Virus genome (UHGV): UHGV-1684449
Length of the DNA: 21,062 bases
Strand: one strand, 5' to 3'
Source: a virus
This document shows positions 1,741 to 19,362 of this stretch, piece after piece (position 1 is the first letter of the stretch; each line of letters starts with the position of its first letter). The notes beneath the pieces are model-generated. The model was not told the DNA's origin. It saw only the letters and a list, made by a program, of their open reading frames with translations, and did no database searches. Made by a program: the position numbers and the translations under genes.

Positions 1741-1787
1741 ATGCAAACTGACTGCGGCTCGTTCCGCAGTCATATTTCATAGTCGTC

Positions 1788-2320
1788 ACCGCTGACAGCA
1801 TACACAATCAATTACCGCTGATAGCATATCGAGAGTTTATCTCACCGCTCACAGCATACTTTACTCGATTTTTTACCGCTGACAGCATACTTAAGACATT
1901 GCATGAATAATGTGTACCGGTATGGGTATAACCAGAACAAAATTACCGCTGGCAGCATACGAAGGTCTGACATATACCATTAATTACCGCTGATAGCATA
2001 TCCAAACAAAAATTCCTCAATAAAACACCGCTGACAGCATACGTTCTATCAGGGAGTAGCAGGCAATAAATGCCTTTCACTACAAGCAATCAGCGCAATA
2101 GCAATAGAATGTTAGTGAGCGCAAACCTATATGGAATGCACTCTTCGAGGTTAGTAACCACTGGGGAGGTATGACAGAGCATTGAGTGGTGATAGATGAT
2201 TTACCGCTCACAGCATACGTTCATCTCACTATACCGCTGGTAGCATATCTTTAACCGTTCACAGCATACTTTTCAGAAAAATAGCCGCTGATAGCATACA
2301 TTTCACCGCTGACAGCATAT
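1788..2320 (+). repeat. Iteron array, 12 copies of a 16-bp direct repeat (consensus ACCGCTGACAGCATAC), incA-like
   Basis: Copies at 1788-1803, 1814-1829, 1844-1859, 1875-1890, 1945-1960, 1986-2001, 2027-2042, 2203-2218, 2233-2248, 2254-2269, 2284-2299 and 2305-2320, all in the same orientation. Variants include ACCGCTGATAGCATAT and ACCGCTCACAGCATAC. Start-to-start spacings are mostly 21, 30-31 or 41 bp. The last copy abuts the stop codon of the initiator gene. Confidence 0.85.
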
Positions 2321-3414
2321 CAAAGCAGTTTGAGACTATTGGAAAGGATCTCAATCATCTTGATATTTTCAGGCGTCAAATTCTGCGAAAGTTCGGTTAT
2401 CTTGTTGATAATGTTCTGTTTGGCATCAATTTCCCCAGCTTTCTCATCTGGTTTTTTGGGTTCGATGTCTTCAGGTTTTGGCGGTGCGACTTTGAGTTTT
2501 GGATTGCGGCTGTGAATCTGGATATAGATCGACCGCCCACGCTTAATCTCGCTGTATTCGAGATAGCCCAAATCTTGGAGAGCTTTTAAGCCGTTACGTA
2601 TAGTCTGATTCTGCGAGCTGACATTCCTGCTACTCAAATTGAGTCGCGCACGCAATCGAGCAAGCGATACCGGCGCAGGCTTGGTTGGAAGACTTTCGAT
2701 GAAGGTGTACAGAGCCTGTGCTGTTTCTTTGCGTGGTAGCTTATTGATAACCTTTAACTGCAAAAGAACCTTATGGTCAAAGCGATATAGTTCGGCCAGC
2801 TTCGGTTCTGCATAGAACACCACCGTATCTTTCTGCTCGTTGTAGTCCACGCTATTGATGAGGTGCACCATCAGAAGCGAGATCTTGTTAGAGCCGTCGA
2901 CGTTCTTTTCTTCATACGTTCTCTGGAAAGACAGAGTTGTACGCATGATCTTCAAAAGACTGTTTGTAAGCCGGTCGCGGAGTGTTTTGCGGATCTGTGA
3001 CGATGGATAGCCACAAAACTTCGCAAATTTCGTGATGCTTAACTCGACACGACCGTTAGGTTCGCCGTATTCTGCCAGCGAACGCACAACGCCCACCCAC
3101 GTTTTGAAATCATGATCCATGTCGAGACGAGGACCGGTTATCTTGATATCGGAATAGCCTTCAGAACGGGCTACTTCGAGCTGGACAAGCTCCTTTGAAG
3201 CATCGATCTCATTTGGCTTGTTACGTTTACTGTATTTTGTTCCCTTAAGCGTGGGGACGAACAACCCCAGTCGCATCAACGCAATTGGTTGGACTGTATT
3301 GTTGCTATTAGGGACAAGTTCCCCTGTGTACAATTCAAGGGAACCTTCTTCAAAGTTGTCGATGTTATCTTCTACTTCTTTGTTATTTTTACCTTTTTTA
3401 TTTTTTGTGGACAT
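2320..3414 (-). CDS. repA: Plasmid-type replication initiator, RepA-like (P1 RepA / Rep_3-like), 364 aa
   Basis: Minus-strand ORF flanked on both sides by iterons. Segments NSNNTVQPIALMRLGLFVP, DIKITGPRLDMDHDFKTW, ALYTFIESLP and IHSRNPKLK match my recollection of P1 RepA-family initiators. Start chosen at the internal ATG (3412-3414, MSTKNKKG...) because the track's longer 404-aa ORF runs through the upstream iterons. Confidence 0.75.
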   Translation of the reverse strand: MSTKNKKGKNNKEVEDNIDNFEEGSLELYTGELVPNSNNTVQPIALMRLGLFVPTLKGTKYSKRNKPNEIDASKELVQLEVARSEGYSDIKITGPRLDMDHDFKTWVGVVRSLAEYGEPNGRVELSITKFAKFCGYPSSQIRKTLRDRLTNSLLKIMRTTLSFQRTYEEKNVDGSNKISLLMVHLINSVDYNEQKDTVVFYAEPKLAELYRFDHKVLLQLKVINKLPRKETAQALYTFIESLPTKPAPVSLARLRARLNLSSRNVSSQNQTIRNGLKALQDLGYLEYSEIKRGRSIYIQIHSRNPKLKVAPPKPEDIEPKKPDEKAGEIDAKQNIINKITELSQNLTPENIKMIEILSNSLKLL

Positions 3415-3434
3415 GTGGACACCTTTGTCATTCA

Positions 3435-3536
3435 ACCGCTGACAGCATACTTGATTTGCCGCTGACAGAATACCAAAAACAGTTGGCAGCATACGGTGAA
3501 CCGCTGACAGACTATCAATTACCGCTGACAGCATAC
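3435..3536 (+). repeat. Upstream iteron array, 5 copies of the same 16-bp repeat, origin/incC-like
   Basis: Copies at 3435-3450 (ACCGCTGACAGCATAC), 3458-3473 (GCCGCTGACAGAATAC), 3479-3494 (ACAGTTGGCAGCATAC), 3500-3515 (ACCGCTGACAGACTAT) and 3521-3536. Spacing is 23, 21, 21, 21 bp, about two helical turns. They sit directly upstream of the initiator start codon. Confidence 0.8.
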
Positions 3537-3576
3537 ATGAACATGACTTCAGACCAGTCGTGGCGCGGCTTACAGC

Positions 3577-3649
3577 GATCGGGGATCTTATTTGATCTAT
3601 ATAAGGATCTATCTATGGATCTCTTTATTAGGATCTATCCTGTGGATAT
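3577..3649. promoter_or_regulatory. Origin-like region: GATC cluster in AT-rich DNA plus a DnaA-box-like site
   Basis: Six GATC sites at 3577, 3584, 3594, 3606, 3618 and 3632 within about 60 bp, inside repeated GGATCTAT units. GATCTCTTTATTAG resembles the E. coli oriC 13-mer GATCTCTTATTAG. TGTGGATAT at 3641-3649 matches the DnaA box consensus TGTGGATAA at 8 of 9 positions. Confidence 0.6.
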
Positions 3650-3735
3650 GTGAATAATTAAAACAGGCATTTACTACCTTCGGCGCACCTGGTGGGTTAT
3701 CGTTGCCTCGGCTAACAATCACAGAAAAATGACAT

Positions 3736-4380
3736 ATGGATCTAAAACGCACGCGCTGGGTTCGTCGTCTTGAAGACGGCTCCTACACTATCGAATCAAA
3801 TTCCAACCTGAATAAGCAGAAGTTGCTTTGTGACATCTGCGGTATAGCGGCGAAGTGCCCGATCTACGAAACCAGAATTAAACTTGATAAGGCTGGTGTG
3901 AATTTTCATTTAAACAGTTGCATCAGGTACGTTCCATTACTCGCATTTCGTAAACCGATCATCGGATTGGATGCTCCCTACTTCAACACACTCCGTTCAG
4001 GTGTGACGTGGCGAGATCGTTTATCACCAGACAAGCTGATTTGCCTCGTATCCGCAGACACAGGGAAAATCATCCGTTTTGGGAAAGTAGACAAGGTTTA
4101 CTCAGGCCCAGTAGACGAAATGTTGCGGAAACACAGCCGGTTTAATCATCTCTGTATGGGTGGTGAGAAAATCGAGAAGGTAGAAGAAGTGATCCGCAAA
4201 TCCTACGGACACTTCCTGAACAAAGATAGCCTGCTCACCGCAATCTACATCAGACATGTAAAACGTGAGTTCGACCTCGAATACCACAGTGAAGAAGAGC
4301 TTAACCTTGTTGACCCACGTCCAAAAGCTGGCGTCATAAGCATAAACGCAGCGCGTAAAAAGCCCACTGACGCGCTGTAA
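3736..4380 (+). CDS. Hypothetical protein (214 aa)
   Basis: ORF transcribed away from the initiator gene. Contains a CDICG (CxxC) motif. No family recognised, and the ribosome-binding site is weak. Confidence 0.5.
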   Translation: MDLKRTRWVRRLEDGSYTIESNSNLNKQKLLCDICGIAAKCPIYETRIKLDKAGVNFHLNSCIRYVPLLAFRKPIIGLDAPYFNTLRSGVTWRDRLSPDKLICLVSADTGKIIRFGKVDKVYSGPVDEMLRKHSRFNHLCMGGEKIEKVEEVIRKSYGHFLNKDSLLTAIYIRHVKREFDLEYHSEEELNLVDPRPKAGVISINAARKKPTDAL

Positions 4381-17776: not shown

Positions 17777-18586
17777 ATGAGTTCGGTTGAAAATGTAATG
17801 ACAAATGATGATCTGGATGAGCTGACAGCCATGTTGCAATCACTTGATGAACCAGTAAAAAAAGCTGCACAGGTTGAAAATACTGATGATATTGACGATC
17901 TGCTTCTCGGCCTCGATGCTGGCGTAGCCATGAGTTCTGATGATGTTGCCGAAGAACTGTTCAATGAAGAAAAAGCAGGTGATTTCAGCTCCGCTTTAAA
18001 TGAGTTGGAGTTAGCTCATGAGCCTATAAACGTAATTAAGGCTGAAAGTGTTGAATCTGCCGAAAACGAGCCAGAACAATTGGGGTTTATTGAGGTTGAA
18101 GAGTGTGTTGAGGTTAATGATGAATTAAAAGTTCAACAGTCAAATGATAGCAATACAAATAAAAAAGCTCGTACTGCAAGAGGTCCTCGTTTTACTTTAA
18201 GTGATAAAGATGATTTGTTTTTCAATAAAGCAGGCTTAGAAAAAGATATTTTCTTAGACGCTTACGAAAACGCGCCTGTCAAAGCAAAGGATAAGATATT
18301 AAACCTTCTTAATTGGTTTAGCGGAGGTCCAGATATTAGTGTTTACACGGTAATTTCCATGAGACACCTTCTCACAGAAAAGAAGGCTACAAGTAATAGT
18401 ATTAAGATTGCTTTAATGAGCAATCCAGAAAAACCGTATCCGCTTAACACTGCGTCAACTCAGGCTGGGCAAATGATGGCTGTATTTCCAGCTACAGGAA
18501 TTGCTGTTAGAGACGGTGGAAATCTAACATTGAACGAAGAATCACCGATCGTTAAGAAGTTTGTCGCGGAGTACACTATTGGATGA
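17777..18586 (+). CDS. Hypothetical protein with a strongly acidic N-terminal half (269 aa)
   Basis: GAAGGAG ribosome-binding site. The first ~120 residues are rich in Asp and Glu (DDLDEL, DDIDDLLLGLD, ESVESAENEPEQ, EVEECVEVNDE). No family recognised. Confidence 0.55.
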   Translation: MSSVENVMTNDDLDELTAMLQSLDEPVKKAAQVENTDDIDDLLLGLDAGVAMSSDDVAEELFNEEKAGDFSSALNELELAHEPINVIKAESVESAENEPEQLGFIEVEECVEVNDELKVQQSNDSNTNKKARTARGPRFTLSDKDDLFFNKAGLEKDIFLDAYENAPVKAKDKILNLLNWFSGGPDISVYTVISMRHLLTEKKATSNSIKIALMSNPEKPYPLNTASTQAGQMMAVFPATGIAVRDGGNLTLNEESPIVKKFVAEYTIG

Positions 18587-18768: not shown

Positions 18769-19362
18769 ATGATTGCAGCCGAAAAAATCAAACAGCGAAA
18801 GCGCGACAACTCTCTTCGTGACCTCTGGAGAACACCTGATTGGCTGTTTTCTGCCATTCAACGTTATCTTGGAGTGACATTTGATGTTGACGTTGCCTGC
18901 AACAAGGACAATGCAAAGCTGCCTATTTTCATAGGCGTTGAGCGCGATGCTTTGAAATCTGAATGGGGGCAGCCAGGTACAATTGCCTTCCTCAATCCAC
19001 CCTACTCCAAAATCTCCCCCTGGATTGATGCGGCTATACGTGAGCAGGCTCGCGGAGTTACAACAGTGATGCTAATTCCTCAATCCCTCGATACAAAGTG
19101 GTATGAGCGTGCAACAGAGTATGCGAATGAGACGATTATTCTGTCTGGTGGCCGCGTTGCGTTTGTCGAGCCTGACGTCAATTTGGGTCAGGTAGAAGTA
19201 AACATCAACCCCGGTGGCAGTATGCTCGTTGTTTTTCGAGGGTTTTGTCAGGACGCTGGGCACTCTATAAGCAAGATCCCTTTGGACGTCATGAAAAGTC
19301 TGGGAGGGTATGATCCTGCGAATGTGATCAGGAAAAAAAGACCATCAAAGAAGGCTGCTTAG
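18769..19362 (+). CDS. DNA N6-adenine methyltransferase (phage Dam-type family)
   Basis: Catalytic motif FLNPPYS (NPPY) and N-terminal LWRTPDWLF, typical of small phage N6-adenine methyltransferases. Target sequence not determinable from the sequence. Confidence 0.7.
   Translation: MIAAEKIKQRKRDNSLRDLWRTPDWLFSAIQRYLGVTFDVDVACNKDNAKLPIFIGVERDALKSEWGQPGTIAFLNPPYSKISPWIDAAIREQARGVTTVMLIPQSLDTKWYERATEYANETIILSGGRVAFVEPDVNLGQVEVNINPGGSMLVVFRGFCQDAGHSISKIPLDVMKSLGGYDPANVIRKKRPSKKAA

Follow-up and report, generated by a model that had tools for sequence, protein, structure and literature searches.

The closest described relatives of the present locus are the oriR origins of P1 and P7 (IncY). Maintenance of P1 depends on the Dam methyltransferase of its host, and the dmt gene of P1 serves lytic functions; Enterobacterales carry a Dam of their own. 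According to the title of their 1987 paper, Abeles and Austin reportedly found that the P1 origin requires methylated DNA, and Abeles et al. are said, again by title, to have worked on that origin. Judging by their titles, Gammie and Crosa in 1991 reportedly described a role of Dam methylation in the REPI replicon of pColV-K30, and Brendler and Austin in 1999 are said to have dealt with SeqA binding; these titles are taken from the reference list of PMC2865523. The RepFIB replicons (REPI of pColV-K30 or P307) can be likened to our locus by description, i.e., by the role of Dam in REPI; the iteron specificities differ. The left end of E. coli oriC is similar in having an A+T-rich unwinding region with closely spaced GATC sites and adjoining DnaA boxes. 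Another comparable system is ori2 of V. cholerae chromosome 2, which is iteron-type, strictly Dam-dependent and SeqA-sequestered (PMC2865523, PMC6090056). In ori2 the GATC sites lie inside the RctB iterons, where methylation promotes initiator binding, whereas in our locus they occupy the unwinding region and are not part of the iterons; the two initiators are unrelated.

The locus was found in a stretch of 21,062 bp (the window, i.e., all of the DNA that was analysed). Positions 3435-3657 are very probably the origin of a P1 oriR-type iteron replicon (RepA/IncY/RepFIB family), which is presumably methylation-dependent like that of P1 and probably not regulated by the methyltransferase encoded in the same window. 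The complete replicon consists of this origin, the rep gene at 2320-3414 and a downstream iteron array at 1787-2326. The 73-bp stretch 3577-3649, singled out in the first-pass annotation as an origin signature, represents the host-factor half of this origin, where six Dam sites in short A+T-rich repeats precede two DnaA boxes. The origin reading is supported, and by more than resemblance, since the DNA is homologous to oriR of P1/P7 and the Rep is 46% identical to P1 RepA. The features of the replicon are as follows.

3435-3541, plus strand: five origin iterons, four perfect and one degenerate, with starts 20-23 bp apart; the equivalent of P1 incC.
3542-3576, no strand: G+C-rich spacer (58% G+C) leading from the iterons to the GATC repeats.
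3577-3640, no strand: A+T-rich stretch forming the origin core, whose short repeats hold six GATC (Dam) sites; supported by statistics, the P1/P7 alignment and conservation.
3641-3657, minus strand: two DnaA boxes sharing one base, ATATCCACA (3641-3649) and TTATTCACA (3649-3657).
2320-3414, minus strand: rep gene for an initiator of the P1 RepA family, 364 aa from the ATG at 3414 (BLASTP and Pfam Rep3_N).
1787-2326, plus strand: second iteron array, downstream of rep, with twelve co-oriented ACCGCTGACAGCATAC-type repeats; the equivalent of P1 incA.

The six GATC sites start at 3577, 3584, 3594, 3606, 3618 and 3632, so that they are spaced by 7-14 bp and fall within 59 bp (3577-3635). The G+C content of 3577-3640 is 34% compared with 46% window-wide, which bears out the earlier statement about six sites in some 60 bp of AT-rich DNA. 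The background of the window is 112 GATC in 21,062 bp, or one per 188 bp. In dinucleotide-preserving shuffles (n=2000) the maximum number of GATC per 59-bp span averages 2.8 with the highest value of 5, and six sites are reached in 0/2000; the Poisson expectation of such a cluster for the whole window is about 0.016. The second-densest real cluster in the window has three sites. In p09EL50, a sister plasmid of 109,274 bp with an ordinary overall GATC frequency (460 sites, 4.2 per kb, observed/expected 0.86-1.1), four or more GATC per 60 bp are found at the origin core only. A comparison of the GATC density with the rest of the element had been proposed as a check; it places the core clearly above background.

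The trio that ranks second in the window (three GATC in 55 bp at 19275-19329) belongs to the 3' end of the methyltransferase gene and is within chance, considering that the shuffle maximum averages 2.8.

The sites had been described as parts of repeated units resembling the 13-mers of E. coli oriC. The repetition is real; the exact unit GGATCTAT, however, is present in two copies only, and the unit is better described as (G/T)GATCT followed by 5-9 variable bases. The resemblance to 13-mers is weak. When the GATC units are scanned with GATCTnTTnTTTT, only 3618-3630 is within 2 mismatches and two more units have 3; the loose 13-mer pattern is barely enriched (108 matches in the window vs 89 expected). 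The unit at 3618, GATCTCTTTATTAG, is presumably one insertion away from the middle 13-mer of oriC. With one good unit and such counts, an oriC-type 13-mer unwinding element was dropped in favour of a description in terms of P1-type heptamers. In contrast to oriC, the units here are 10-14 bp long without a general fit to the 13-mer consensus, and initiation needs a plasmid Rep and iterons. One more copy of the repeat unit, ATATGGATCTA at 3734-3744, overlaps the start codon of ORF 3736-4380. This ORF encodes a conserved protein (phrog_2105, named ASCH domain protein in phage Cyrano), and its homologue always follows the core in SSU5-like elements.

The DnaA-box-like sequence reported beside the cluster proved to be two overlapping boxes rather than one. 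They read TGTGGATAT (3641-3649) and TGTGAATAA (3649-3657, i.e., TTATTCACA on the minus strand) in plus-strand letters; each is one mismatch from TTATCCACA. In the alignment they fall opposite AGTGGATAATGTGGATAA, the DnaA site annotated in P1/P7, and they are conserved in 31/31 of the cores compared below. On the other side of the cluster, the spacer CCAGTCGTGGCGCGGCTTACAGC aligns with CCAGACGTGGCGCGGCCTGCAAC of P1; it reads CCAGTCGTGGCGCGGC... against CCAGACGTGGCGCGGC... in P1. The iterons mentioned earlier as lying nearby are confirmed as the five at 3435-3541, with starts at 3435, 3458, 3480 (the degenerate one), 3500 and 3521 and the core CCGCTGACAG. In the downstream array this core is found with at most 2 mismatches at 1789, 1815, 1845, 1876, 1946, 1987, 2028, 2204, 2234, 2255, 2285 and 2306, all twelve falling within 1789-2315.

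The Rep protein is 46% identical to P1 RepA over 278 aa (BLASTP, E 3e-86) and 49% identical to the RepA of SSU5; it also has a Pfam Rep3_N match. The RefSeq form of this gene is 404 aa long and starts at an ATG at 3534, inside the origin iterons. This annotation is probably over-extended, because an AAGGTG Shine-Dalgarno sequence precedes the ATG at 3414 by 7 nt and the homology to P1 RepA begins at residue 32 of the 364-aa form. The sequence TGTGGACATGTGGACA at 3406-3421 is an imperfect palindrome with two overlapping TGTGGACA motifs, which resemble DnaA boxes with two departures from the consensus. At the inner edge of the iterons, the palindrome shares bases with the start codon of rep; it may serve as an operator or as a weak inner site for DnaA. 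A crude consensus scan of 3300-3800, the iterons included, found no sigma-70-like promoter or terminator.

A sensitive blastn search with 3536-3680 as the query detects P1, P7 and numerous P1-like plasmids, with alignments of about 110-123 bp and 78-82% identity, and the DNA match to them is limited to 3548-3668 of the window. In the matched stretch the P1 (K02380) and P7 (AF503408) records contain the annotation “Dam methylation site” (4 and 5 sites, respectively), a DnaA site, the incC iterons and the rep_origin oriR; repA and the incA iterons lie beyond it. In the alignment all five GATCs of P1/P7 are opposite GATCs of the window, and the sixth site of the window is GGACCT in P1. The order outward from the iterons (G+C-rich spacer, GATC repeats, tandem DnaA boxes) is the same, and in both cases there are five origin iterons and an iteron array downstream. 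The sequence features of the P1 replicon that were tested are all present, except for a rep promoter inside the iterons, which was not detected.

The differences from P1/P7 are as follows. The iteron of the window is CCGCTGACAGCATAC; there are six GATCs vs five, and twelve downstream iterons in one orientation vs nine in two orientations. Compared with P1, the Rep has a C-terminal extension of about 55 aa, and the DnaA boxes overlap by one base, while those of P1 abut. The iteron sequence, the six GATCs and the twelve co-oriented control iterons are lineage-specific variations of the known P1 oriR/RepFIB-type family; a specialist in plasmid replication would recognise the replicon type at once. 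A P1-like plasmid typed as IncHI1B, pMUB-MIN10-2, also has six GATCs in a core with 82% nucleotide identity to ours, and its initiator is of the “RepB family”.

The GATCs are selectively conserved in the core. We gathered 90 related loci via the conserved downstream gene and BLAST, which gave 30 distinct cores and, together with the window, 31; a scan of genome contigs with the downstream protein gave only five loci, and viral contigs and plasmid/phage BLAST were much more useful. The 31 cores span at least four iteron/Rep types (the window, SSU5/pMT1, P1/P7 and the IncHI1B-typed P1-like plasmid). Within 3577-3640, the 24 GATC columns are 98.4% identical vs 77.3% for the 40 others (Mann-Whitney p 1e-6, a significance inflated by the relatedness of the sampled cores). 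Each of the six sites is intact in 28-31 of the 31 sequences.

At the DNA level, the window starts to resemble Cyrano and the P1-like plasmids near 3548, immediately beyond the last iteron (SSU5, at about 3576). Between the window and Cyrano or the P1-like plasmids, the DNA-level similarity of Rep and iterons is below detection. Hence, conservation or exchange of the host-factor half does not depend on the Rep/iteron half. This suggests that Rep/iteron cassettes are swapped modularly against a fixed core of about 120 bp, since conservation of the core greatly exceeds that of Rep (46% identity). What is common to these replicons is a host-factor half with about 80% DNA identity, shared at Rep identities of about 46% and with differing iterons. 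The fixed break near 3548 can be useful for replicon typing, the prediction of incompatibility and the study of Rep/iteron module exchange.

In the SSU5/pMT1/pHCM2-type lineage (26 loci), origin-like modules occur as a tandem pair, and both modules contain iterons, GATC repeats and a DnaA-like box; they lie, in particular, at 2600-2720 and 2990-3075 in SSU5 (L001) and at 2442-2561 and 2842-2914 in Y. pestis (L005). The Rep-proximal copy keeps a GGxTCT periodicity of about 10-12 bp, and GGTC or GTTC stands in place of three of its six GATCs; this degenerate state is itself conserved across the lineage. The lineage of the window has a single core.

As to the element itself, the 2.1 kb around the GATC cluster is 99-100% identical to about 70 plasmids of E. 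coli and Shigella, each of about 110 kb. Among them are p09EL50 (O104:H4) and pECOH89; the methyltransferase of the latter is 100% identical to that of the window. The Escherichia phage PhiR41_1 has 99.3% identity to the same 2.1-kb region. More distant matches include the phages SSU5 and Cyrano, Salmonella pHCM2-type and Yersinia pMT1-type plasmids, and plasmids of Klebsiella and Enterobacter; the hosts found for related elements are all Enterobacterales. The sister plasmid p09EL50 carries capsid, portal, terminase and tail genes together with ParB-domain proteins, DnaE, a DnaB-like helicase and a ligase. Given these virion and replication genes, the window belongs to the SSU5-supergroup of phage-plasmids as defined in PMC7969092, i.e., the replicon resides in an SSU5-like siphovirus-type phage-plasmid of E. 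coli, distinct from P1. Its replicon lineage is rep_cluster_488 (MOB-suite), for which we found no experimental work. A full-text literature search gave no title or abstract on the origin of SSU5-like elements, although the subject may be treated in older subscription literature on pMT1 and pHCM2; in the phage-plasmid survey that covers these elements (PMC7969092) the words “methyltransferase” and “iteron” are both absent.

From the homology to P1 we infer that the origin in the window depends on methylation and binds SeqA. Rep, from the five iterons, and DnaA, from its boxes, would open the A+T-rich GATC region, which is the presumed strand-opening site and, when hemimethylated, the presumed binding site of SeqA. 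Firing would occur only with the GATCs methylated on both strands. After replication, the hemimethylated cluster would be bound by the SeqA of the host and re-initiation would be delayed; cooperative binding of SeqA would fit the GATC spacings of 7-14 bp. The downstream iteron array would limit the copy number. In the plasmid state, methylation would be supplied by the Dam of the host, and the most likely roles of the Dam-family enzyme of the element would be to keep fast-replicating or packaged DNA fully methylated and protected from restriction, rather than to regulate the origin. The details of opening may differ from P1, because the two Rep proteins share only 46% identity and the iterons differ.

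This enzyme is the second component named in the first-pass annotation, where an NPPY-motif methyltransferase was paired with the origin.

18769-19362, plus strand: 197-aa N6-adenine DNA methyltransferase of the phage Dam family, apparently an orphan and a candidate GATC methylase (PF05869, TIGR01712, phrog_111, PADLOC).

The identification of the enzyme is correct. NPPY is found at residues 76-79, within FLNPPYSK (residues 74-81), which is conserved in the alignment with the enzymes of T1, HP1 and the Stx phage. The match to the Pfam Dam family PF05869 has an E-value of 1.5e-37 (129.3 bits vs a cutoff of 28.1), and the match to TIGR01712 (the NCBIfam equivalog “phage N-6-adenine-methyltransferase”) has 112.5 bits vs 97.05; there is a match to phrog_111, and the best PADLOC match is “orphan methyltransferase”. 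The identity is 39% to ORF35 of Stx-phage Min27, 31% to HP1 Dam and 25% to T1 Dam, and these enzymes are 33-38% identical among themselves. Characterised members of the family are specific for GATC, and the window enzyme probably methylates GATC as well. A PDB sequence search with the enzyme gave no solved structure, and the names of its cluster members give no clue to specificity. Like the orphan Dam enzymes of the HP1, T1 and VT-2 type, it is a small N6-adenine methyltransferase with an NPPY motif, for which no partner nuclease can be recognised; the papers on cloning the “Dam methyltransferases” of HP1 and VT-2 are cited in PMC7556043. A restriction-modification pair is unsupported, as no Pfam, PADLOC or PDB match was obtained for the neighbour 17777-18586, though a novel nuclease is conceivable.

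The best surviving alternative to our reading is that the Dam-family enzyme of the element acts on the GATCs of the origin and sets their methylation and sequestration state; we consider it unlikely. In its variants, the enzyme might re-methylate the origin faster than host Dam and so shorten the sequestration by SeqA, might raise the copy number at induction, or might provide fully methylated DNA that fires at once in a new host. What speaks for this is that the enzyme is a bona fide phage member of the Dam family, about as close to its Stx-phage, HP1 and T1 homologues as they are to each other, and that it is part of a conserved backbone: a tblastn search (E <= 1e-20) finds it in 739 plasmid records, and it is present in about 722 of the SSU5-like plasmids, from Klebsiella, Escherichia, Enterobacter, Salmonella, Citrobacter and Cronobacter. 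P1, VT-2 and HP1 are among the phages that encode Dam-like proteins (PMC7556043), and a putative Dam methyltransferase of Stx phage Phi24B was reported to be expressed in lysogen cultures (PMC3342100).

On the other hand, the gene lies 15 kb from the origin, within a phage DNA-metabolism/replication block; its neighbours are nrdA, nrdB, thyA, a kinase/clamp-loader-like ATPase, a polymerase exonuclease subunit and RNase H. The Enterobacterales in which such elements are found have a Dam of their own. Homologues of the methyltransferase matched 1987 phage records, most of them without plasmid origins; orphan Dam is thus common in phages that have no such origin, and its co-occurrence with one is of little weight. 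The Yersinia plasmids provide a further argument. About 63 pMT1 plasmids carry the region of the origin and the downstream gene, and the Y. pestis locus keeps six GATCs, but no Yersinia is among the organisms listed for the 739 enzyme-bearing records (one tblastn search at the above threshold). Accordingly, the origin appears to be maintained intact there without the enzyme of the element. Overall, the evidence leans against a dedicated link between the methyltransferase and the origin.

The annotation had added that the element could control its own origin “as P1 does with its own Dam-type enzyme”. This parallel is not established, considering that P1 is maintained by the Dam of the host and uses dmt in the lytic cycle. 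P1, whose origin is homologous, does encode a Dam-type enzyme; its Dmt belongs to a methyltransferase family different from that of the window enzyme, and it follows that the P1 and SSU5-like lineages did not inherit a shared pair of origin and methylase. There is a related form of the proposal, in which the enzyme is made in lytic growth or, sparsely, in the plasmid state, and full methylation of the six origin GATCs is due to it; this would allow packaged genomes immediate oriR-type replication in a new cell, or an escape from SeqA at times when the copy number has to rise. It also appears improbable to us. If it were true, the pairing of the same core with non-homologous Dam enzymes in the P1 and SSU5-like lineages would be a case of convergent selection.

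It has also to be considered whether the GATC repeats are retained for their sequence as such, as parts of the unwinding region (e.g., for single-strand contacts of Rep or DnaA, similarly to the oriC 13-mers), with the Dam sites being incidental. Such an explanation is compatible with a role of the Dam sites, as the two are not exclusive; taken in this strict form, we believe that it is very unlikely. The conserved unit is indeed longer than GATC (GGATCT in most copies), and the Rep-proximal copy in the SSU5/pMT1 lineage, with its GGxTCT periodicity and three lost GATCs, indicates that the repeat frame can persist without the Dam site. However, in the working copy the GATC bases are nearly invariant while the flanks vary, the match to the 13-mer consensus is weak, and the P1 origin reportedly requires methylated DNA, as the above title of Abeles and Austin has it.

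We give hardly any credence to the last proposal, namely, that the cluster is not an origin but a methylation-regulated packaging site similar to pac of P1 (a cluster of GATC-containing hexamers, the cleavage of which needs methylation) or a Dam-sensitive regulator of ORF 3736-4380, which starts about 100 bp downstream with a GGATCTA overlapping its start codon: the stretch aligns with oriR of P1 rather than with pac and is flanked by iterons and DnaA boxes, the terminase of p09EL50 is about 48 kb away (11-13 kb, with the core at about 60.4 kb), the crude consensus scan found no promoter-like site in 3300-3800, and P1-like plasmids share the core without the downstream gene. A pac site of the P1 type was rejected also in view of the units, which are GGATCT here vs TGATC(A/G), and since p09EL50 shows no second GATC cluster in the element.

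With our reading, i.e., a P1-type origin under host control, a testable mode of replication control (host Dam/SeqA and DnaA acting on a P1-type core) is assigned to a very common group of enterobacterial phage-plasmids. The core is carried by hundreds of plasmid records, some of them with resistance genes. The result does not open any long-standing question.

Two observations concern the sister plasmid p09EL50. At 28005-31296, a region outside the window, it carries a full-length metG (methionine-tRNA ligase) and apbC, both host-derived in look. In the whole plasmid (L095-L097) CTAG is strongly depleted, with observed/expected of 0.41 vs 0.86 for GATC; under-representation of CTAG is the usual enterobacterial pattern.
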